Positions 9,582 to 45,670 of a DNA stretch of 58,702 nucleotides are shown in pieces; the stretch's first letter is position 1; each line of letters begins with the position of its first letter. The stretch covers positions 1 through 58,702 of the forward strand of contig JAFWDK010000011.1 of assembly GCA_017513085.1 (NCBI GenBank), given 5' to 3'. The DNA is from Clostridiales bacterium (lineage in GTDB: Bacteria; Bacillota; Clostridia; Saccharofermentanales; Saccharofermentanaceae). Below the pieces are notes generated by a model. It had not been told where the DNA came from and did no database searches. It worked only from the letters and a program-made list of their open reading frames with translations. The translations under genes were made by a program, and so were the position numbers.

Positions 9582-9642
9582 GATCGTAGTTAGCACAGGC
9601 TTACTTTATAACTTATATAAATATCCGAAGGAGACGAACAAA

Positions 9643-10350
9643 ATGGGAAACACAATCGTCGAGTTTAAGAATGTCACGAAGCAATATGGTCAAGGTGAAG
9701 CGATCCAGCTGGCCAACAACGATGTCAACTTCACGATCGAAGAGGGCGAATTCGTCGTTATACTCGGTCAGTCCGGAGCCGGCAAATCCACCGTATTAAA
9801 CATGCTGGGCGGGATGGATACACCTACATCCGGAACGATCACCGTCGCCGGCCAGGAAGTCTCGAAGATGAACGATAAAGAGTTATCGGAATATCGCGCC
9901 GGCACGATCGGGTTTATCTTCCAGTTCTATAACCTCCTCCCCTCCCTGACCGCCATAGAGAATGTGTCTTTGGTAAAAAACATCGTCAAAAGCGGTCCGG
10001 AACCGATGGAGATGTTACGCGCCGTCGGACTCGGGGATCACGCCAAAAAGTTTCCGTCGCAAATGTCCGGCGGCGAACAACAACGCGTCTCCATCGCAAG
10101 AGCTTTGGCCAAGGACCCGAAGATCATACTCGGCGATGAGCCGACGGGAGCACTCGATTCCGAGACCGGTGTGATCGTTCTGGAACTTCTTTCCGATCTT
10201 TCCCGCAAACAAGGAAAGACCGTGATCCTGGTCACGCATAACGCCGATATTGCCAAGTGTGCGGATAAAGTCATCCGCATGAAAAACGGAAAGATCCGCG
10301 AGATCCGCATCAACGAATCTCCGGTTCCGGTCCGGGAGGTGGAATGGTAA
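9643..10350 (+). CDS. ABC transporter ATP-binding protein (LolD/MacB-type)
   Basis: Walker A GQSGAGKST, signature MSGGEQQRV, DEPTGALD and H-loop VTHN; AAGGAG RBS. Confidence 0.93.
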   Translation: MGNTIVEFKNVTKQYGQGEAIQLANNDVNFTIEEGEFVVILGQSGAGKSTVLNMLGGMDTPTSGTITVAGQEVSKMNDKELSEYRAGTIGFIFQFYNLLPSLTAIENVSLVKNIVKSGPEPMEMLRAVGLGDHAKKFPSQMSGGEQQRVSIARALAKDPKIILGDEPTGALDSETGVIVLELLSDLSRKQGKTVILVTHNADIAKCADKVIRMKNGKIREIRINESPVPVREVEW

Positions 10351-12662
10351 TGCTTGTACGTAAGATGACGCGGGAGATCCGGAAGAACCTCGGCCAGTTC
10401 CTCTCTCTCTTTGTACTCTCCTTTCTGGCCGTATCTCTTTTTGCCTGCATGAAGGCTAGCAATATCAGTGCTTACAACAAGCTGGATGACTTGCGGAAAG
10501 AAACCAATTGCGCCGACGGCTGGATCTTCAGCGAGAACTTTTCTTCGGAAGATCTTTCCTCTGTAAAAGCACTTTCCGACATCACTTCTGCGCAGAGACG
10601 TCTTCACTTCAAAGCGACGGCGGAAGGCTTCGACCAGGCGCAGTTGGAAGTCTATGGTCTTGAAGAGGATCTGGTTTCCATGCCGTATTATGTGACCGGA
10701 AACAAGCTGGATCTGACATCGAAAGATGGCATCTGGATCTCGGAGTCTTTTGTGAAAGAATGGGGTCTGAAGATTGGCGACTCTTTCTCCTTTTCTGCTT
10801 ACGGTCAAATTCTGAACAAACGCATCGAAGGCACGATCGTTTCTCCTGAATATCAGTATCTCAAAGCGGATAAGGATCTGGATATCATAGCGAAAAATAT
10901 CGCCGTCATCTATATGCCGGTCGATGGACTAAGCGAATATTTCCAGGGTCTTCCCGGCGGCCTCCCTTTCAATGAACTGATCTTCACGACCAGCCGAAGC
11001 GATGTGAAATCTTTGGAGTCCTCGCTGGATGAAGCACTTCACGGCAACTATGCAGTGCTTTGCGATCGGGACGACATGCCCGGGATCCGCATCATGAAAG
11101 ATGAACTGGCACAACATGATCAGTTTGCCATCACCTTTCCGGTCGTTTTTCTGGCTATTGCCATATTGGTCATTATGACGACGATGAACCGAATGATCGC
11201 CAACCAGCGTACCCAGATCGGAACGCTGCGCGCCTTGGGCATGAAGAAAAGGAAGATCATCTTCCACTATCTGAGCTACAGTTTTATTGTCTCGCTTCTG
11301 GGCTCCCTCGTAGGCGTTTTCGTCGGCACCTATCTCTTCGGCGAAGGGATCGCCGCGATCTTCCGTGCCTGGTATTTGATCCCGGGCTGGACGGTCGAGA
11401 TGGATGCCTCATTCGCACTTATCGTGATCCTGATCGTACTCGCCTGTACGCTCGCGACTTATTTCAGTTGCCGCAAAGTCATGAATGTACATCCTGCCGC
11501 AAGCCTTCGCCCGGCCGCTCCGAAATCCGGCAAAAGCACTCTTTTCGAAAAGCTTCCTTTCTGGTCCAGACTCGGCTTTTCTTCCCAGTACAACCTGCGT
11601 GATATTGCACGCGGAAAGCTGCGTTCTTTCATGGGCGTTTTCGGAACTGCCGCCGGCATGATGATCATGGTCGCGGCCATGGCTTCGATCACCACGATCC
11701 AGGATGCCTCTTCCTGGTCTTTCGACAAGATCCAAAACTTTAAAAACGAGATCGATTTCTCGGATGATATCACGTTGGATCTGGCAGAGAGTTATAAAGA
11801 AAAATATGGCGGCGAACTGATCCAGACATCGGCAATCGAGATTGCAAAAGAACCGCACGCGGATTCTTCGAAGAAAAAGACAACTTCGCTTATGGTAACT
11901 GAGGGCGAAAACTTCTACCGGCTCACTGACAAAAACCGCGATCTCGCCGAACTTGCTCCAGGAAGCTGTGCCATTACCATGAAGCTGGCCCGTTCTCTGG
12001 ATCTTCGTGAAGGCGACACTTTCTACTGGCACCTTTATGAAAAGAATACCTGGTATGAGGCAAAAGTCGGATTGATCAACCGTCACCCGAATTTCTCGGG
12101 AGTGACGATGTTACGTGACGACTATGAAGCAACCGACGCCGGATATCTACCTAGTCTTCTCTATACATCTTCCGACTCGGTGGATGCTCAGGACCAGCCG
12201 GGCATCTTAGCGGTCCATGATGACAAGGATCTGAAGGAAAGCTTCGATATCATGATGGAAATGATTTATGCCATGCTTTTCGTCTTTGTGGTATTTGCAA
12301 CGATCCTGCCGATCGTCGTCCTCTACAATTGCGGGAATCTCTCTTTCCACGAAAGAGTGAAAGAATTTGCTACGCTGAAAGTCCTTGGGTTCACCACGAA
12401 AAAGATCAGAAAGCTCCTCTCTCTTCAGAACCTTTGGCTCTCCATCATCGGAGTGTTCCTGGGGGCGCCGTTCGGCAAAGTCATGCTCCAGTACATGTTC
12501 GACAGTAACGGAGACAGCATGGACTACCCTGTCTCAGCAGGATTCCTCGTCTATCTCGTCTCAGGACTCTTCGTCATGATCGTATCTGTACTGGTCAGTT
12601 ATATGTTCAACAAACGTATCAAGAAACTGGATATGGTCGAGATCCTGAAAGGCATAGAATGA
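10350..12662 (+). CDS. ABC transporter permease, duplicated FtsX/MacB-like
   Basis: Two FtsX-type repeats (QRTQIGTLRALG; ERVKEFATLKVLG) with large extracellular loops. TAATG overlap with the ATPase stop. Confidence 0.88.
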   Translation: MLVRKMTREIRKNLGQFLSLFVLSFLAVSLFACMKASNISAYNKLDDLRKETNCADGWIFSENFSSEDLSSVKALSDITSAQRRLHFKATAEGFDQAQLEVYGLEEDLVSMPYYVTGNKLDLTSKDGIWISESFVKEWGLKIGDSFSFSAYGQILNKRIEGTIVSPEYQYLKADKDLDIIAKNIAVIYMPVDGLSEYFQGLPGGLPFNELIFTTSRSDVKSLESSLDEALHGNYAVLCDRDDMPGIRIMKDELAQHDQFAITFPVVFLAIAILVIMTTMNRMIANQRTQIGTLRALGMKKRKIIFHYLSYSFIVSLLGSLVGVFVGTYLFGEGIAAIFRAWYLIPGWTVEMDASFALIVILIVLACTLATYFSCRKVMNVHPAASLRPAAPKSGKSTLFEKLPFWSRLGFSSQYNLRDIARGKLRSFMGVFGTAAGMMIMVAAMASITTIQDASSWSFDKIQNFKNEIDFSDDITLDLAESYKEKYGGELIQTSAIEIAKEPHADSSKKKTTSLMVTEGENFYRLTDKNRDLAELAPGSCAITMKLARSLDLREGDTFYWHLYEKNTWYEAKVGLINRHPNFSGVTMLRDDYEATDAGYLPSLLYTSSDSVDAQDQPGILAVHDDKDLKESFDIMMEMIYAMLFVFVVFATILPIVVLYNCGNLSFHERVKEFATLKVLGFTTKKIRKLLSLQNLWLSIIGVFLGAPFGKVMLQYMFDSNGDSMDYPVSAGFLVYLVSGLFVMIVSVLVSYMFNKRIKKLDMVEILKGIE

Positions 12663-12670
12663 CAAAGAAG

Positions 12671-12760
12671 TAGTTAGCATATTCTAACTATTTGTATTGA
12701 CACGGATGTTTTCTATTGATATAGTATATACGTTTAGTTAGCCTATGCTAACTAAACGTA
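12671..12760 (+). promoter_or_regulatory. sigmaA promoter flanked by two AGTTAGC-N4-GCTAACT operator boxes
   Basis: Box 1 AGTTAGCATATTCTAACT (12672-12689). TTGACA (12697-12702), 17 bp, TGa-TATAGT (12720-12725). Box 2 AGTTAGCCTATGCTAACT (12736-12753) lies within 14-bp perfect arms spanning 12729-12760. Confidence 0.85.
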
Positions 12761-12785
12761 AAGACGATCAGAAAGGAAAACATCT

Positions 12786-13349
12786 ATGCCGGAACGGTAT
12801 CTGGTTGACCAATGCGCGCCGACTCTTGCCGGAATGAAAACAGGAAGCCTCTTTACTATTCATGGCAAAGATCCGGAAAGGATCCACTCCGAGATCAGAA
12901 GGATCAATCGCACTCTTTCAGGCAAAGGGCTTTTGCTTCTTCCTCTTCACTCAACTTCCGCATTCTGTCTTCTTTATCTGTATCGTCCGAAGCAACTTGA
13001 CCAGGATCTGAAGCAGCCGAAATGTACTAAACTTCTCCGAAAATGCGGATACTCAAGTCTCCGGACAACGACCTGTCTGGTTCACCTTATCCGACGGCTT
13101 CGGGAAGGATCCGGGTTTCCTCACGAGATCGGTCTTTTCCTTGGTTATCCTCCGGAAGACGTACAAGGCTTTATGGAAGATCCGCACTGTCCAAGCAAAT
13201 GCCGAGGCTGCACAGGAGGATGCTGGAAAGTATATCACGAACCGGAAAAAGCCCAAGTGCTTTTTGAGAAGTATGCGTCCTGCACGAGAAGTTATCAGAA
13301 GCGGCTCCTATGCGGAGCTTCTATCGAACAGTTGGCCGTAGCAGGCTGA
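12786..13349 (+). CDS. DUF3793 family protein
   Basis: QCAPTLAG.K...L, YLYRP, FPHEIGLFLGYPPEDV.GF and CWKVY motifs; typical position upstream of flavodoxin. Confidence 0.85.
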   Translation: MPERYLVDQCAPTLAGMKTGSLFTIHGKDPERIHSEIRRINRTLSGKGLLLLPLHSTSAFCLLYLYRPKQLDQDLKQPKCTKLLRKCGYSSLRTTTCLVHLIRRLREGSGFPHEIGLFLGYPPEDVQGFMEDPHCPSKCRGCTGGCWKVYHEPEKAQVLFEKYASCTRSYQKRLLCGASIEQLAVAG

Positions 13350-13418
13350 AGAACAGGCAGTTTCCTGCACTCCGCAGGTCTGTATATATGAAATCTTACA
13401 AACAGAAAGGATATAAGT

Positions 13419-13850
13419 ATGAGCAAAATCGCAATTGTTTTTTGGAGCGGAACCGGAAACACAGAGACTATGGCAAATGCTGTGGAAGCCGGTGCTAAAG
13501 AGGCCGGTGCAGAAGTCACACGTTTTTCGCCGGCTGATTTTACCGAGGACAAAGTAGCAGACTTTGACGCGATCGCTTTCGGATGCCCGGCTATGGGAGC
13601 CGAAGTTTTGGAAGAGTCGGAAGTTGACCCGATGTTCACTGCGCTTGAGCAGGCCAGCGTCCTTACCGGTAAGAAGGTCGGTCTTTTCGGTTCTTACGGC
13701 TGGGGTGACGGCGAGTGGATGCGAAACTGGGAAGAAAGATGCAGACAGGCAGGCGCTGATCTTATCTACGAAGGCGTGATCTGCAACGAAGCCCCGGACG
13801 CTGCCGCTACCGAAGCTTGTAAAAAGCTTGGCACAGATCTCTCACATTAA
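13419..13850 (+). CDS. Short-chain flavodoxin
   Basis: WSGTGNTETMA, FGCPAMG and LFGSYGWGDGEWM motifs. Confidence 0.95.
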   Translation: MSKIAIVFWSGTGNTETMANAVEAGAKEAGAEVTRFSPADFTEDKVADFDAIAFGCPAMGAEVLEESEVDPMFTALEQASVLTGKKVGLFGSYGWGDGEWMRNWEERCRQAGADLIYEGVICNEAPDAAATEACKKLGTDLSH

Positions 13851-13887
13851 TTCATTCACAATTCACTATCAATCTATCTATTCACCT

Positions 13888-13930
13888 AAAGTACCTGATC
13901 AGACATTCATATCTTTTCAGGTACTTTTTT
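13888..13930 (+). terminator. Intrinsic terminator
   Basis: AAAGTACCTGA / TCAGGTACTTT stem with T-run. Confidence 0.8.
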
Positions 13931-14003
13931 ACACACAATTGCAAAATGAAGTATAATAGTAAATAATTATTTTGAAACCATCTGATTTACAAGGAGAATA
14001 CAT

Positions 14004-14384
14004 ATGAACGGACTATATGAATCTGGCGAAGATTATCTCGAGACCATCCTGATCCTTAAGAAGCGAAACGGCAATGTTCGTTCCGTGGATATCGCCCACG
14101 AGATGGAGCTGAGCAAACCAAGTGTCAGCCGTGCTATGGGCATCTTGAAAAACAAAGGTTTTATCTCTATCGAAGAAGATGGCAGTATTATTTTTAGCGA
14201 GGAAGGCAGCAAGCTGGCCAAGCGTATCTACGAGCGTCATCGTATCCTTACGGAAGCCCTGATGCTTCTGGGCGTGGATGAGAAAACCGCTTCAGAAGAT
14301 GCGTGCCGCATCGAGCATGATATCAGCGAGAAATCTTTCAACAAGATCAAGAAGCATGTTCGTGATGCCAAGAAAGCTGAGTAA
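14004..14384 (+). CDS. DtxR/MntR-family metal-dependent transcriptional regulator (no FeoA/SH3 domain)
   Basis: ESGEDYLETI, VRSVDIA...SKPSVSRAM, YERHRIL and DACRIEH motifs. Confidence 0.92.
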   Translation: MNGLYESGEDYLETILILKKRNGNVRSVDIAHEMELSKPSVSRAMGILKNKGFISIEEDGSIIFSEEGSKLAKRIYERHRILTEALMLLGVDEKTASEDACRIEHDISEKSFNKIKKHVRDAKKAE

Positions 14385-24888: not shown

Positions 24889-25165
24889 ACAAAAAATCCT
24901 CGACAGAACTCCATTCTTTCTGTCAAGGACGATTCAAAATCGCGGTGCCACCTTGATTCACGACCCTAGCCGTGCACTTAGCAGGATACCAACATATCCC
25001 CGGCAAGTAACGTATGCCCTCACGTTGCAGAATACTTTGCATCACGCATTTGACTGCACCCTCAGCGGTCCATTTGATGACTTGTTTTCCACCGGTCTCT
25101 CATCCACACCGGCTCTCTGTAGGAGCATCATCACCGTTATCTCCGCGTCAACGGTTTCTCATATC
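24889..25165 (-). ncRNA. Trp T-box riboswitch upstream of trpFBA
   Basis: Stem I with AGAGA and GAUGAG motifs; UGG specifier (25072-25070); T-box AAGGUGGCACCGCG (24954-24941); terminator 24891-24929. Promoter TTTACA-17-TATTAT (25200-25172). Confidence 0.93.
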
Positions 25166-38302: not shown

Positions 38303-40161
38303 AGGATCACCTCCTCTTCCTTTTCTACCGCCAGATAGTTCATCGCCTGGCGGATGTACATCTTTGCATATTTTCCCTTCTTATCGATCAGTTCACGGTG
38401 ATCGCCGCGCTCAATGATCGTTCCCTTCTCCAGCATGAAGACTTTGTCGCAGTTCTTGACCGAAGACAGACGGTGCGAAATGAATACCATCGTATGGTCC
38501 CGTCCTTCCTTCATGATGTTCTTGAAAAGCTCATACTCCGCGATCGGGTCAAGTGCCGAGCTCGGCTCGTCGAAGATCTTGACCGGCGATTCTTTTGCAA
38601 AAGTTCTCGCGACGGCGAGTTTCTGATGTTGCCCACCGCTGAAGACGGCACCGTCTTTGTCGAATTCTTTGGTCATGATCGTATCCACGCCTTTTGGCAA
38701 AGACTCAACCTTTTCGAGGATTCCGGCACGGCGGAGCGCACGGTGCACGATCTCCTCTTCATTCTCGTAATGGCGTCCCATCAGGACGTTTTCTTTGATG
38801 CTCATCGCGAAGATCGCAAAGTCCTGGAACGTAGTCGCGAACAGTCTTCTGTACGCACGAAGGTCATACTCCTTAATATTTTTGCCGTTCAGCAGGATCT
38901 CACCGGATGTCGGATCGTAGAATCGAAGTAGCAGTTTGATGATCGTTGTCTTCCCTGCACCATTGTGTCCGACAAGCGCTACGATATCGCCCTTATCGAT
39001 GCGGAAAGAAAGATCCTTGATCGTCTCTTCGTCCTTATACGAGAAGCACACGTTCTTGAACTCCAGACTCTCAAATCCTTCCGGGATCTCACCTTTCTGA
39101 TCCTGCGGGATCTTCTCTTCGTACTCTAAGAAAGTACGAAGGTTATTCATGAAGACACCGTTCTTGATCAAGTCCATGACATTTTCAAAAGCACGGATCA
39201 GGATCCATGTCATCGCCACCATCAAGCTGGTCATGATCGTCAGCTGCGCCAGCGTGATCGTCTTACTGACCAGGTTTCTGTAGATCGCGTAAAAAAGCAC
39301 ACCTTCGAAGATGATCGTGAAGGTGAATGTGATCCTCCAGAAAGAAAGCGAACAGTTAGCAAATGCATACTTCACCGCCGCTTTTACATTCTTCTTGGTC
39401 GCTTCCTGATACTGTTCTTTCAGAAGCGAGAACACATTCGAAAGACGGATCTCTTTTGCGCCGTCCGGCAGGTACATCATGCGGTTGACGTAATTATGCA
39501 CTTTGTTTTGCGGTACTTGCGCCTGATAGCGCTTATACTCATATTTCTGCTTGTAATTACCAAAGATGAAGTTACCGATCAGCGGTGAGATAATGAACAG
39601 CACGGCATAGTGATCGATCTCGAACATGAAGTAGAAGACCGCAGCAAGTGCCGGCACCGATACGATCACGCCCCAGAAACTCTGGACGATCTTGGCAACT
39701 TTTTCTTCCGCACCATCCATAGCCATAGTGTACTTATCGTAGAAATCCGAATCCTCGTAGCACCGGAGTTCCACATTCTTCGCTTTGGCAAAAAGCTTCT
39801 TGTAGATGCCGCCGTAAAGATGGATCGTGCCCAGCGGTAACGTCACATTTTCCGCGTATTTCGTATAGCAACGCAACACCAGGAACACCACACCGGTCAT
39901 GGCGATGAACCACATGATCTCATTAAAGGGCTGATTGGTATCCAGCGCATTGACGATCTTTCTCATGAAGATGCCATCGTAAAACACCCACTCAAAGTAT
40001 CCGAAAAGCATCAGCAGAAAGCCTGCAATGACCAGTCTCTTGTCGATCGATGCAGCAAGCTTCACTGCATACAGATCATTCTTCACTGTCTGCGCAAACG
40101 ACAGTTTTTTCTTTTTCTCTTTATTCTTTTTACTTGGTTCCTCTTTCTTTTCTTTGCTCAT
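38299..40161 (-). CDS. ABC exporter, fused permease/ATPase (subunit 1)
   Basis: Transmembrane domain plus GHNGAGKTT, FSGGQHQK and DEPSSALD motifs. GAGG RBS before ATG 40161; promoter TTTACG-17-TACAAT at 40269-40241. Confidence 0.92.
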   Translation of the reverse strand: MSKEKKEEPSKKNKEKKKKLSFAQTVKNDLYAVKLAASIDKRLVIAGFLLMLFGYFEWVFYDGIFMRKIVNALDTNQPFNEIMWFIAMTGVVFLVLRCYTKYAENVTLPLGTIHLYGGIYKKLFAKAKNVELRCYEDSDFYDKYTMAMDGAEEKVAKIVQSFWGVIVSVPALAAVFYFMFEIDHYAVLFIISPLIGNFIFGNYKQKYEYKRYQAQVPQNKVHNYVNRMMYLPDGAKEIRLSNVFSLLKEQYQEATKKNVKAAVKYAFANCSLSFWRITFTFTIIFEGVLFYAIYRNLVSKTITLAQLTIMTSLMVAMTWILIRAFENVMDLIKNGVFMNNLRTFLEYEEKIPQDQKGEIPEGFESLEFKNVCFSYKDEETIKDLSFRIDKGDIVALVGHNGAGKTTIIKLLLRFYDPTSGEILLNGKNIKEYDLRAYRRLFATTFQDFAIFAMSIKENVLMGRHYENEEEIVHRALRRAGILEKVESLPKGVDTIMTKEFDKDGAVFSGGQHQKLAVARTFAKESPVKIFDEPSSALDPIAEYELFKNIMKEGRDHTMVFISHRLSSVKNCDKVFMLEKGTIIERGDHRELIDKKGKYAKMYIRQAMNYLAVEKEEEVIL

Positions 40162-42166: not shown

Positions 42167-42381
42167 TTTTTGAAAACAATTTGACAACCCGTCAAACGCC
42201 TTAATATCAGATATTTCAGAAAATCATCCGGAAATCGTCTTTCAAAAAACAAAGCCTCTTGATTTACCCATTCACCTTGCGGTATACTAGGCAAATAACG
42301 AACAAGTGCTTTTGCATGATCCATATCAACCGAAAACGGGGATCATGCTATCGGAAGTTATTAGAAGGGAGAGTACTTCTT

Positions 42382-42777
42382 ATGGTATCTACAAAAGGAC
42401 GTTATGCGATCCGTGTCATGATCGACCTGGCTGAGCATCAGGACGGTAATTTTATTCCGCTGAAGGATATCGCCGAGCGCCAGGACATTTCAAAAAAGTA
42501 TCTGGAGATCATCGTCAAAGACATGGTAGCCGGCGGTCTCGTGGTAGGCGCCAGCGGAAAGGGCGGCGGTTACAAACTCTGCAGAAAACCCGAGAAGTAT
42601 AACATCGGCGAGATCCTCGAACTCATGGAAGGAAAACTCGCCCCTGTAGCCTGTCTGTCCGAAAAGAAAAACACCTGTCCCAGAAAATCCGTCTGCCATA
42701 CATTACCGATGTGGACAGAATACGACAAGATGGTCCACGACTTTTTCTATTCAAAAAAACTCAGCGACCTGCTCTGA
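42382..42777 (+). CDS. Rrf2-family regulator (IscR/CymR-like, three-Cys type)
   Basis: STKGRYAIR.M.DLA, IAERQDISKKYLE and GKGGGYKL motifs; CLSEKKNTCPRKSVC; divergent from iscSU. Confidence 0.92.
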   Translation: MVSTKGRYAIRVMIDLAEHQDGNFIPLKDIAERQDISKKYLEIIVKDMVAGGLVVGASGKGGGYKLCRKPEKYNIGEILELMEGKLAPVACLSEKKNTCPRKSVCHTLPMWTEYDKMVHDFFYSKKLSDLL

Positions 42778-42876
42778 CCGGGGATCTATCCTCTATAGAT
42801 GAATTCCACGCTTGAGCAAAAGCGCCGGTACCTTTGCTTTTACACCATCTTCTCTACTTCTCGCTATCGTAGCAAG

Positions 42877-42911
42877 AAAAACGCCCGTAGCCTTTAAGGC
42901 CACGGGCGTTT
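42877..42911 (-). terminator. Intrinsic terminator of the candidate sRNA
   Basis: AAACGCCCGUGGCCU-UAA-AGGCUACGGGCGUUUUUCUU. One position is a G-U pair on the minus strand but an A-C mismatch on the plus strand. Confidence 0.85.
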
Positions 42912-43097
42912 CGGGATACCTAGCATCAGCAGGCAGGAAAGTGGTAGCAATAAAGCTGCCTGCCATTTCAAGAAGTCGTGCTTTTCATGTGAAGTACATT
43001 ATATATTAGGGGAGTTGATCTGAACTGCAGAAACTACGCACGACCCCTCTATAGGTATAATATCAAGGAACACAAACTAGTTAGCATATGCTAACTG
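42877..43097 (-). ncRNA. Candidate small regulatory RNA (~220 nt) under the AGTTAGCATATGCTAACT operator
   Basis: Own promoter and terminator, internal stems and no ORF with a usable RBS. See the first finding. Confidence 0.65.
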
Positions 43098-43132
43098 TCA
43101 ACGATTATAGCAGACACTTTTTTCCACGTCAA
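43079..43132 (-). promoter_or_regulatory. sigmaA promoter with a perfect 18-bp operator at +1
   Basis: TTGACG (43132-43127), 17 bp, TGc-TATAAT (43109-43104). Palindrome AGTTAGCATATGCTAACT at 43079-43096. Confidence 0.88.
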
Positions 43133-43200
43133 CATTATTTTTCATACTTTTTTTCAAAAAGGTATAGACATTCTCCACGAATGGTGTATTATATGAATTG

Positions 43201-43230
43201 TAAACACATGAACGGTTGTTCATACGTTTA
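43201..43230 (+). promoter_or_regulatory. ArsR/SmtB (CadC/CzrA-type) operator upstream of the HMA-P1B ATPase operon
   Basis: TAAAC-AC-ATGAAC-GGTT-GTTCAT-AC-GTTTA inverted repeat, just downstream of TAGACA-16-TATTAT (43165-43192). Confidence 0.75.
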
Positions 43231-43320
43231 TATGACAAAGAAACATTGAAAAACCATACGGATACTGAGAGAATCTTTTACGGATCATTCACCAAGTCCG
43301 AACCGAAAAAGGAGTTAATT

Positions 43321-43539
43321 ATGAAAAAGTCTTTTAAACTTGAAGAACTGGATTGCGCAAACTGCGCGGCTAAGATGGAAGCAGCAATTGCTAAACTTCC
43401 GGGAGTTAAGAAGGTTGCGATCAACTTCATGGCCCAGAAAATGATCCTTGAGGCAGAAGATGACCAGTTCGATGAAGTTCTGGCCTTGGCGCAGAAGAAA
43501 ATGAAGGAAGTTGAGCCGGACTGCGAGATCGTGATGTGA
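43321..43539 (+). CDS. Stand-alone heavy-metal-associated (HMA) domain protein
   Basis: LDCANCAAKME motif; AAGGAG RBS before ATG 43321. Confidence 0.9.
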   Translation: MKKSFKLEELDCANCAAKMEAAIAKLPGVKKVAINFMAQKMILEAEDDQFDEVLALAQKKMKEVEPDCEIVM

Positions 43540-43671
43540 ACCTCGGGTGACCAGTCTTTTCTGATTTCATCTTTTCCTATTCAATAATAGTATTTACACT
43601 GAAAGTATCCACACAAGGATCCTCAATCCGGATCCGGTAGTACTTTACGGCCCAAAGGGAGTGTTTCCTAT

Positions 43672-45670
43672 ATGACGAAAAAACAGAAAAAAAGATTAAA
43701 AAGAATTCTCCTGGCGGCGGCGATCCTGGGTATTCTCCTTCTGCTCACCGAGGTATCGGCGATCAGCGAACATATCCCGTTTCCGGAAAATGCAATCGCC
43801 AACCGTATCCTTATGACACTTCTTTTCCTTATCCCCTATCTGATCGTAGGATACGACGTCGTACTCGGTGCTGTTAAGAAGATCGGTAAAGGCCAGATCT
43901 TCGACGAAGAATTTCTCATGCTCATCGCCACGGCAGGCGCTTTTGCCATCGGAGAATATCCGGAAGCCACAGCCGTCATGCTCTTCTATCAGGTAGGAGA
44001 GCTTTTCCAGAGCATCGCGGTAGGACGCAGCAGAAAATCGATCTCGGATCTGATGGACATCTGCCCGGACAGCGCCATCGTGCTCCGCGCTGCAGAGGGA
44101 GAAGGCAGCGATACCGGCGCTTTGGCGGAAATCGAAGTGGACCCGAGCGAGGTGGAGATCGGCGAGACCGTGCTGGTCAAACCTGGTGAAAAGGTCCCGA
44201 TCGATGGCATTATTCTGGAAGGAAACACTTCGCTTAACACTTCCGCCCTCACCGGGGAAAGCGTCCCGGTAGACCGGAAAGTCGGAGACAAATGCTTTTC
44301 GGGAAGCATCAATCTGACACAGGCGATCAAGATCCGCACCACTTCTGCGTACGAAGACAGCACAGTGGCCAAGATCCTGGAACTGGTGGAAAACAGTACG
44401 GATAAAAAAGCACGTTCCGAGAATTTTATCACTCGCTTCTCGCGTTTCTACACACCGGCCGTTGTACTTTGCGCGATCCTGATCACTCTGATCTGCGCAT
44501 TCTTCACCAACCTTGGCCTCTCCCGGAGCCTGTACCGTGGTCTGATCTTTCTCGTCGTCTCCTGCCCGTGCGCCCTCGTGGTTTCCGTACCGCTGAGCTT
44601 TTTCGGTGGAATCGGTGCCGCCTCGCGTCAAGGCATTCTCGTCAAAGGCAGCAACTATCTCGAAGCGCTCGCTACCGTCGACACGATTGTGCTCGATAAG
44701 ACCGGCGACCCTGACCGAAGGGCGTTTCGCAGTAGAAGCCGTACATCCGAACGAAATCGATCCCGATGAGCTGATCGATATCGCCGCCCTTGCGGAAAGC
44801 CGTTCGAATCATCCGGTGGCCGAGTCCATCGTAAAAGCACACGGCACACACATCGACTCCAGCCGGCTTGGTGAGGTAGAGGAAATTGCAGGCAAAGGCA
44901 TCCGTGCGATCATCGACGGAAACACCTATTACGTAGGAAATGGTGCTCTCATGACCGAAATCGGAGCTGATTCCCACGAGTGTCACCTCCCCGGAACCAT
45001 CGTTCATGTCGCACGCGTAAAAGACTTGAATATCAAGCTTTGTAACAGTGTTACGGACAGTAACGGAAAAGAGATTCCGGTCTTCGATCCGAAATCCACC
45101 GAGTATTTAGGCCACATCGTCATCAACGATGTCATTAAAGAGGGTTCCAAAAATGCACTGGCGGATCTTCGCCGGGCGGGCGTCAAAAATGTGGTCATGC
45201 TCACCGGGGATAATGAAAAGGTTGCAAAAAAAGTCTCTACAGATGTTGGTGTGGACAAATTCTTTGCCGGCCTTCTCCCCGCTCAGAAAGTTGAGAAGCT
45301 CGAAGACCTCCTCGCCAAAAGAACCGGCAACGTTGCTTTTGTCGGTGACGGCATCAATGATGCTCCGGTACTGACCCGTGCAGATATCGGTATCGCCATG
45401 GGCGCGCTGGGTTCCGATGCAGCGATCGAGGCTGCGGATGTGGTTCTTATGAACGATGATCTCAGAAAGATCCCCGTTGCGGTTAAGATCGCCCGAAAGA
45501 CTCTTCGCATCGTCAAAGAGAACATCACTTTCTCCTTGGCCGTCAAGATCGGCATCATGGTGCTTGGCGCACTCGGTATCGCAGACATGAAGCTGGCCGT
45601 CTTCGGAGACGTCGGCGTCCTGATCCTCGCAATCCTAAATGCACTTCGCGTCCATCGGACCCGTGCCTAA
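43672..45670 (+). pseudogene. Zn/Cd-type P1B ATPase (CadA/ZntA-like), split by a +1 frameshift in the DKTGT motif
   Basis: Frame 1 has LTGES, SCPC and DKTG. Frame 2 continues TLTEG, SNHP, MLTGD and GDGINDAP. There is an extra base at ~44707 (GAT AAG ACC GGC g ACC CTG ACC). This may be a sequencing error. Confidence 0.85.

Follow-up and report, generated by a model that had tools for sequence, protein, structure and literature searches.

FsrA of Bacillus subtilis and RyhB of Escherichia coli are Fur-repressed small RNAs (sRNAs) that silence the mRNAs of dispensable iron proteins. IsaR1 of Synechocystis, a cyanobacterial iron-stress sRNA, is also controlled by Fur and is reported to repress ferredoxin among its targets, and RsaC of Staphylococcus aureus, cut from the 3′ end of an mRNA, is tied to the MntR-controlled mntABC operon and to manganese sparing. 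IsrR of S. aureus is an iron-repressed sRNA of 174 nucleotides (nt) with repressor boxes in its promoter and just past its start site; it has several stem-loops, an intrinsic terminator and single-stranded C-rich regions that pair with the ribosome-binding sites of Fe-S enzymes (PMC9410917). The mycobacterial iron-sparing sRNA MrsI (ncRv11846) has a site for IdeR, a DtxR-family protein, near the start site, and a short conserved loop seed that pairs with the 5′ untranslated regions (UTRs) of iron-protein mRNAs, with bacterioferritin as the validated target (PMC6016810). Here we analyse a candidate RNA of this kind, encoded on the minus strand at 43132-42877 of a 58,702-nt contig from a Clostridiales bacterium of the family Saccharofermentanaceae (GenBank assembly GCA_017513085.1, contig JAFWDK010000011.1, positions 1 to 58,702). 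This whole stretch is called the window below.

Iron-sparing sRNAs have so far been worked out in few cultured model bacteria. Our literature searches found no such sRNA described for strictly anaerobic, ferredoxin-dependent rumen or gut Clostridia, nothing linking DUF3793, flavodoxin and a DtxR/MntR regulator or sRNA in Clostridia, and nothing on the MntR box motif. The unit in the window is very probably a real non-coding RNA gene. To the whole explanation, that it specifies an independently transcribed, trans-acting, metal-repressed sRNA of ~220 nt with an iron-sparing role, we give a probability of about 0.6. Computation on the genomes described below shows how the unit is built, that it is conserved, that its structure covaries, that it belongs to a regulon and that it co-occurs with a repressor gene.

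Anatomy of the transcription unit

The features of the unit are as follows (bp, base pairs; MFE, minimum free energy).

43127..43132, minus strand: -35 hexamer TTGACG, from sequence reading
43104..43112, minus strand: extended -10, TGc-TATAAT, with a 17-nt spacer to the -35 hexamer
43079..43096, both strands: operator palindrome AGTTAGCATATGCTAACT, core GTTAGC-N4-GCTAAC, 18 bp, perfect, at about +1
42877..43096, minus strand: predicted non-coding RNA of ~220 nt, type A paralogue
43059..43079, minus strand: conserved 5′ tract UAGUUUGUGUUCCUUGAUAUU, mostly unpaired (unpaired probabilities 0.67-0.81)
43052..43058, minus strand: 5′ arm (AUACCUA) of the long-range closing helix P2, in the MFE fold and type A consensus
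43008..43017, minus strand: C-rich tract CAACUCCCCU, predicted unpaired (probability 0.40-0.99)
42928..42964, minus strand: hairpin P4 with the conserved C/U-rich loop CUUUAUUGCUACCACUUUCC, in the MFE fold and consensus
42918..42924, minus strand: 3′ arm (UAGGUAU) of the closing helix P2, in the MFE fold and type A consensus
about 42877..42914, minus strand: intrinsic terminator with a GC-rich stem of 16 bp that includes a single G-U pair, then U5

The promoter at 43132-43104 scores 11 of 12 plus the TG extension, and is the best sigma-70-like site in a scan of 42200-43700. The operator begins 7 nt past the -10 hexamer, and as RNA it makes a 7-bp hairpin at the 5′ end. When AGTTAGCATATGCTAACT was searched with up to three mismatches, five matches were found in the window and none in each of 100 shuffles. 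The RNA folds with an MFE of -76.3 kcal/mol (z = -5.2), and none of 200 shuffles folds as well. The fold holds a GUCGUGC/GCACGAC helix and an 8-9-bp stem (42928-42936/42956-42964). It also contains the terminator, which is missing from the listing of a simple terminator scan.

Much of this had been proposed in a first-pass annotation made from the letters of the window. The promoter TTGACG-17-TGcTATAAT lies where it had been placed, the perfect palindrome near +1 is exactly at 43096-43079, and the GC-rich terminator with U5 is present. The G-U pairs of the structure are compatible with the minus strand only. Of the proposed helices, the 8-bp stem and GUCGUGC/GCACGAC appear in the MFE fold, but a competing AGGGG/CCCCU stem does not. 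The view that the RNA belongs to no known family also stands: a search of 42700-43330 against Rfam 15 gave best E-values of 0.29, 1.3 and 3.4, all with scores far below the gathering scores. The unit had further been described as terminated and free of open reading frames (ORFs), and this agrees with a kept terminator and no conserved ORF. The window copy holds only non-conserved ORFs (12-30 codons, for example) without a Shine-Dalgarno (SD) motif. Across 19 copies from the genus, no ORF is kept in frame or length, indels break the frames, and an SD motif precedes just two of the listed ORFs.

Conservation and two paralogous types

The comparison set was 23 relatives of the same genus, making 24 genus genomes with the window's own (G000). 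BLAST found the 5′ 60 nt and an internal hairpin in 11 of the 23 relatives and in none of 36 genomes outside the genus. A covariance model (R1) built on the first 97 positions found 19 copies in 16 of the 24 genomes, G000 included. Conservation of the whole unit had been put forward as a check, and the RNA with its promoter, operator and terminator is present in 15 of the 23 relatives. All 15 also hold an orthologue of the candidate repressor described below, and the RNA was found in none of the six operator-free genomes. In G017, which has the operator and the repressor (the latter gene at a contig start), R1 detected no RNA.

Outside the genus, among 118 genomes from other genera of the family, R1 gave one weak match, in G164 (E = 0.005). 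This locus (L196, C8:57838-58052, plus strand) has TTGACG, a 17-nt spacer, TAAACT, the operator and the beginning of the 5′ tract, and continues for ~215 nt with a CACCCCC tract and a terminator. Its body is otherwise different from the window RNA, and it may be a distant analogue. Scans of contig collections returned mostly chance matches and are therefore uninformative on the distribution of the RNA: with a 14-base pattern, true copies made up 3 of at least 121 loci in genome contigs, and in metagenome contigs 5 of at least 120, two being new variants.

The copies are 220-236 nt long and fall into two types, type A with six copies (the window's included) and type B with 13. Common to both are the operator hairpin, the 5′ tract UAGUUUGUGUUC..., the pair ATACCT...AGGTAT and the terminator. 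The ACUCCCC core of the C-rich tract, predicted unpaired, is present in 19 of 19 copies of both types. Two copies each occur in G001, G020 and G021. The arrangement TTGAC(A/G), 17-nt spacer, TAnn(A/T)T, with the palindrome 6-7 nt past the -10, is found in 17 of 18 complete copies; the copy without this layout is that of G004, where the upstream DNA is rearranged.

In most relatives the RNA gene is divergent from the DUF3793 and flavodoxin genes. Type B copies have the 3′ end of an FtsX permease gene on one side and, on the other, the DUF3793-flavodoxin(-repressor) operon, from which they diverge. The window has the gene order of the type B locus at 9643-14384, with an FtsX-DUF3793 gap (12662-12786) of only 124 bp that holds two operators. 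G000 is thus without type B and holds its type A copy 30 kb away; from the gene order, it seems to have lost type B and kept type A. The type A copies of G011 and G020 (G020b) are divergent from DUF3793 too. Downstream of type A there is a His_Phos_1 gene in G020b and an ORF with the same N-terminal residues in G011, and the type A copies of G008 and G021 (G021a) adjoin a HemN-like radical SAM gene.

Folding of each of the first 14 copies singly gave a common plan. The operator hairpin is followed by the unpaired 5′ tract and P2, then comes an inner helix with the C-rich tract left unpaired, and one more hairpin precedes the terminator. When both types were aligned together, MAFFT misaligned the variable middle, so that a joint consensus fold recovered just the operator hairpin and a portion of the terminator; per-type alignments were used instead. 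Covariation, the other comparative check suggested at first pass, is clear in type A: 13 of 54 consensus pairs have changes on both sides, with a shuffle mean of 5.6, none of 500 shuffles reaching 13, and slid controls giving 1-6. P2 is paired in 100% of cells in type A, with one compensatory pair, and is kept in type B. In type B, changes on both sides were seen in 5 of 41 pairs, all within the terminator, and the other helices are plainly conserved or show G-U variation. The terminator helix covaries in both types.

Expression

Two sheep-gut metatranscriptome runs from different studies (X2 and X3) contain part of the stretch. Whole contigs lie without mismatch inside the RNA, at 42901-43070 in X2 (170 nt) and 42920-43070 in X3 (151 nt), and X2 also holds a 161-nt contig of an RNA homologue. 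The flanking genes (42200-43800) gave only 35-nt pieces with two to four mismatches, from other organisms, and no identical contigs; the uncovered parts of 42200-43800 in X2 and X3 do not show silence. The contigs carry no strand or level information. We take them as a modest hint of expression.

The X2 and X3 contigs both end at 43070, 26 nt inside the predicted RNA, without a loose end. Contigs of X1 (whose RNA label is guessed) and X4 (whose kind is not recorded) extend beyond this position. Position 43070 may be an RNA end or processed 5′ end, for which the shared end is a weak hint, or equally an assembly break at sequence shared by the paralogues.

The operator and its regulon

In the 3.06-Mb genome the exact core GTTAGC-N4-GCTAAC is present at 19 sites, where base composition predicts 0.18; with one mismatch allowed, 36 sites were found and 6.6 are expected. 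The reversed control pattern had no match in the genome. Twelve of the 19 exact sites are intergenic within 54-108 kb of contig C23, where they precede feoA-feoB, several paired ABC transporters, MacB/FtsX-type transporters, a NifH-like and FecCD cluster, an enolase paralogue and TetR/AraC regulators. Further sites in the genome stand before large surface proteins, and a second feoB gene, itself followed by a second DtxR-family gene, has two one-mismatch sites upstream of it. Within the window, the same palindrome had been noted around the DUF3793-flavodoxin promoter, and it is indeed there twice (aa, amino acids):

12672-12689 and 12736-12753, both strands: two operator copies, one mismatch each, before the DUF3793-flavodoxin-repressor operon
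12786-13349, plus strand: DUF3793 gene
13419-13850, plus strand: flavodoxin gene
14004..14384, plus strand: DtxR/MntR-family repressor gene, 126 aa, with PF01325 and PF02742 matches, at the end of the DUF3793-flavodoxin operon

Judged by the genes that it precedes, the palindrome appears to be the operator of a metal-uptake and flavodoxin regulon. The exact operator is present in 17 of the 23 relatives and absent from six. It is also frequent in some genomes from other genera and families of the order (nine sites in G031 and eight in G050), and these genomes carry repressor homologues of 49-57% identity.

The sites on C23 form a 55-kb island (52-108 kb, L020-L022) with 12 exact operators. Besides feoAB, it contains a NifH-like gene together with two nitrogenase-component-like genes and FecCD, a ZnuA/ABC-3 transporter, genes for a cobW-like GTPase and a His_Phos_1 mutase-like protein, the enolase paralogue, and numerous ABC exporter-type pairs accompanied by TetR or AraC regulators. 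A second ORF-less unit with an identical operator lies at about 84962-85185 of C23 (L021:12962-13185, plus strand), flanked by the 3′ end of a TIM-barrel gene on one side and that of an enolase gene on the other. Its TTGACA and TATAAA are separated by a 17-nt spacer, and GTTAGCATATGCTAAC stands at about +1; after this come a hairpin, in which UUCCCUCCC pairs with GGGAGGGAA, and a terminator. Its first ~130 nt are conserved in 7 of the 23 same-genus genomes, and the unit is unrelated to the window RNA. Copies of the palindrome with three mismatches were also seen in the window at 39354-39371 and 9588-9605; one is inside an ABC transporter gene, and the other is 38 nt before an ABC ATPase gene divergent from a TetR gene.

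The candidate repressor and the metal

Control by a DtxR/MntR-family protein, as the first-pass annotation had supposed, agrees with the presence of a gene of this family in the flavodoxin operon and with its co-occurrence with the operator. An orthologue of the 126-aa protein (63-86% identity) is present in 16 of the 17 operator-bearing relatives, the exception being G018, a genome 88% complete. At 63% identity or more it is found in none of the six operator-free relatives, three of which hold only 54-55% homologues. The orthologue is on the same contig as the flavodoxin locus and within a few kb of it in G002, G003, G011 and G021, and in G004 it lies a few hundred nt from the RNA. The RNA is likely to be controlled through the palindrome by a DtxR/MntR-family protein.

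The closest matches of the protein are MntR structures (E about 1e-13), followed by DtxR/IdeR. It is short, without an SH3/FeoA-like domain, and in an alignment to B. subtilis MntR it keeps D10, E13, H79, E104 and H105, five of the six ligand positions. At the sixth, C101 replaces the Glu of MntR, and DtxR also has Cys at this position. The classical DtxR/IdeR box differs in half-site spacing, so the AGTTAGCATATGCTAACT operator is not a canonical DtxR box. Two Fur-family genes are also present in the genome. The content of the regulon (flavodoxin, two feoB loci and FecCD) points toward iron, which is the probable signal and which we place ahead of manganese by roughly two to one.

Complementarity to a ferredoxin mRNA

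The first-pass annotation had drawn attention to C/U-rich tracts that might pair with ribosome-binding sites. A conserved single-stranded tract that includes UGUUCCUU is complementary to the ribosome-binding site of a ferredoxin mRNA. The gene (C3:13472-13678) encodes a 68-aa 2x[4Fe-4S] ferredoxin, 90-99% identical in 22 of the 23 relatives, and has a strong promoter and a leader of ~32 nt.

Between the type A 5′ tract and this mRNA, an imperfect duplex of 21 bp is predicted that reaches from about -17 to +8 and spans the SD motif and the AUG. At -19.9 kcal/mol, it ranks 18th among 2872 windows. When all six type A copies were paired with their native leaders, the energies were -20.1 to -21.9 kcal/mol, values reached by 9-19 of 500 shuffled tracts. 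In type B the complementarity lies in a different, internal tract that is conserved: UCCUGAUAUUUU is perfectly complementary to AAAAUAUCAGGA of the same ferredoxin leader. Ranked by longest perfect complement, the ferredoxin window is first or second of 2872 for 13 of 13 type B copies, and the lengths are reached by only 0-6 of 3000 shuffles. All 12 native type B pairs extend across the SD motif, over 12 nt in ten copies, 11 in one and 9 in one. G020 shows a compensatory change, with AUAAUAUCAGGA in the leader and UCCUGAUAUUAU in the type B RNA, by which the 12 nt are kept; the paired change also lengthens the type A match to 10 nt. The ferredoxin-pairing tracts of both types are predicted to be mostly unpaired, and the genome has an hfq gene.

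A genome-wide search with the complement of the 5′ tract matched the RNA locus alone, and a scan with the complement of the P4 loop gave no consistent target. Overall, the RNA is fairly likely to be a base-pairing regulator, and ferredoxin has about an even chance of being a direct target.

Proposed mechanism

A metal-loaded DtxR/MntR-family repressor, likely the protein encoded at 14004-14384, would bind the palindrome at +1 and block the promoter. Scarcity of the metal, most likely Fe(II), would release the repressor, and the same release would induce iron uptake (feoAB and ABC importers), flavodoxin and the RNA. The RNA would fold into the 5′ hairpin formed by the operator sequence itself, P2, the inner helices and the terminator, with the conserved tracts left single-stranded. 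These tracts would pair with ribosome-binding sites, for which the 68-aa ferredoxin mRNA is the best candidate. Ferredoxin synthesis would then stop while flavodoxin takes over, giving an iron-sparing switch. In this scheme the binding of repressor to operator, the metal involved, action in trans, the choice of ferredoxin as target and the sign of the regulation are inferred.

A wider scheme can be drawn, which we regard as speculative and rather doubtful as a whole. In it, the short MntR-like repressor with a DtxR-like cysteine would serve these rumen Clostridia as master iron sensor instead of Fur, and would control the ferredoxin-to-flavodoxin switch via paralogous sRNAs. The seed would have moved from the 5′ tract in type A to an internal loop in type B while facing the same mRNA site, the operator would double as a protective 5′ hairpin, and at least one unrelated operator-controlled sRNA, that of C23, would belong to the regulon.

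Several results weigh against an iron-sparing sRNA that acts on ferredoxin. RNA-library contigs can come from DNA, and the metatranscriptome runs were selected by means of this very stretch. Since the genomes are kin, the co-occurrence of operator, repressor and RNA is a pattern and not a statistical test, and the counts overstate the case. The score of the 126-aa protein reaches neither the MntR nor the DtxR cut-off of NCBIfam, and its ligand set is mixed, with an MntR-like Asp10 but C101 where MntR has Glu. The cofactor-dependent phosphoglycerate mutase-like gene and the enolase of the regulon would fit manganese sparing. In the target search, duplex-energy ranking with two RNA segments and seed-word scans brought out no iron theme. 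The top energy and seed matches included an HD-domain protein, an ATP-grasp enzyme, an ABC permease, LDH and ThiC, and the other top complementarity matches are non-iron proteins. The expectation that Fe-S proteins would be enriched among the targets failed: for Fer4_7 and radical SAM genes taken together p was 0.08 with the 5′ tract and 0.88 with the C-rich tract, in a rank-sum test that dropped unmapped matches (2 of 19 Fer4_7 and 3 of 21 radical SAM). By duplex energy, 28-nt type B segments rank ferredoxin only 55-564 of 2872 and long RNA segments 626-1274 of 2872; we judge these rankings uninformative, since G-rich flanks and long loops are favoured by the method, but count them here on the negative side. 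The perfect match between the window's type A copy and the ferredoxin leader is just 7 nt long, and among the 2872 windows the other one with a long complement belongs to an acyltransferase gene. Finally, 20 of 23 genomes share an identical leader, among them 7 of the 8 in which no RNA was detected, and its conservation is therefore independent of the RNA.

Alternative explanations

The nearest alternative keeps the RNA and its mechanism but makes manganese, or general divalent-metal limitation, the signal, with a true MntR as repressor and manganese as the metal spared. We regard it as a minor though serious possibility. The best repressor matches are MntR structures and MntR NCBIfam models, the agreement at five of six MntR ligand positions and the short domain structure fit, and so do the ZnuA/ABC-3 transporter, the His_Phos_1 (cofactor-dependent mutase-like) gene and the enolase. 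Flavodoxin, two feoB loci and a FecCD-type importer are, however, typical of iron limitation; the repressor shares a Cys with DtxR at a position occupied by Glu in MntR, and the leading candidate target, ferredoxin, is itself an Fe-S protein. A metal-repressed RNA might also act otherwise than by pairing with ribosome-binding sites, by binding a protein, as a sponge or on unseen targets. The near-invariance of the 5′ and C-rich tracts, beyond what pairing with variable targets would need, favours such a role, as do the failure to find Fe-S enrichment and an energy ranking that does not single out ferredoxin. This is nevertheless improbable, given that both types keep a complement to the same ferredoxin site at different RNA positions, that G020 has a compensatory change, and that the tracts are predicted unpaired.

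Three further explanations deny the RNA an independent regulatory role. It could act in cis, as 5′ leader or attenuator for a gene downstream, and have been orphaned here by rearrangement: the His_Phos_1 gene of G020b begins 22 nt past the terminator on the same strand, and in G011 and G015 an SD motif and start codon lie 20 to ~100 nt past it. Yet the next downstream gene in the window (Rrf2) is convergent, type B copies face the 3′ end of the convergent FtsX gene, a strong terminator is conserved in all copies, and Rfam gave no riboswitch or leader match, so that this explanation is quite unlikely. That only the DNA matters, as promoter and operator for divergent genes with the transcript as a by-product, is less likely again. 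The unit does adjoin the DUF3793 promoter region in most relatives, and the window's conserved tract carries a TATAAT on the plus strand; the tract was considered as a plus-strand promoter and rejected, this TATAAT not being kept in type B. Moreover, DUF3793 has its own, closer promoter and operator, conservation extends over the ~200 nt past the operator, which include compensatory pairs and a terminator, and the RNA-library contigs cover the RNA body but not the promoter. The chance that the unit encodes a small protein is negligible: short ORFs can be read in every copy, but they show the lack of conservation, the near absence of SD motifs and the broken frames described above. An independently transcribed, metal-repressed sRNA that spares iron by pairing with target mRNAs is the explanation we prefer.

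Genomic neighbourhood

On one side the unit is flanked by an Rrf2 gene (42382-42777, plus strand, convergent with the RNA), then iscS and iscU, and on the other by genes for a small HMA protein and a P-type ATPase, divergent from the RNA. The position next to Fe-S assembly genes, which the first-pass annotation had noted, holds in this genome but is not kept in relatives. The HMA protein gene is at 43321-43539 (plus strand) and is followed by the heavy-metal P-type ATPase in overlapping frames (43672-44769 and 44606-45670). A single frameshift near 44600-44770 marks the latter as a pseudogene or an assembly error. The sole Rfam 15 match in the window is a T-box leader at 24922-25160 (minus strand), at 96.6 bits and above the gathering score.

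Significance and comparison with known systems

Rumen and gut Clostridia depend on ferredoxin for fermentation and hydrogen metabolism. If our explanation is right, the locus would provide a fully specified, testable circuit, with repressor, operator, regulon, sRNA and a named target site that has natural compensatory variation. It would explain a swap of ferredoxin for flavodoxin, and would be another independent invention of the same regulatory logic. With the operator of an uncharacterised DtxR/MntR subfamily defined, metal regulons in metagenome-assembled genomes could also be annotated more usefully.

FsrA and RyhB would belong to the same functional class, but they are under Fur control and their sequences are unrelated. 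The unit has its own promoter, unlike RsaC. Repression of ferredoxin by IsaR1 parallels the candidate target here, whereas Fur control and the cyanobacterial host set that RNA apart. IdeR is a long DtxR with an SH3-like domain, and the repressor here, at 126 aa, is closer to MntR.

IsrR resembles our RNA in size, in an operator near the start site, in stem-loops, terminator and conserved single-stranded tracts, and in restriction to one genus (PMC9410917). There are also differences: the sequences are unrelated, Fur boxes take the place of the DtxR/MntR-type palindrome, and IsrR has three C-rich regions where the candidate seed here is a U/C-rich 5′ tract plus one C-rich tract. Its targets are nitrate-respiration enzymes (PMC9410917), as against the candidate ferredoxin, and the RNA described here exists as two paralogous types. 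MrsI shares a DtxR-family-type operator near the start and corresponds to the candidate pairing with an iron-protein 5′ UTR, but it is found in Actinobacteria rather than Clostridia and is unrelated in sequence (PMC6016810). No described RNA family matches the unit, and in function it matches the iron-sparing sRNAs; it would therefore be a new sRNA family of a known kind, the metal-repressed sparing sRNAs.

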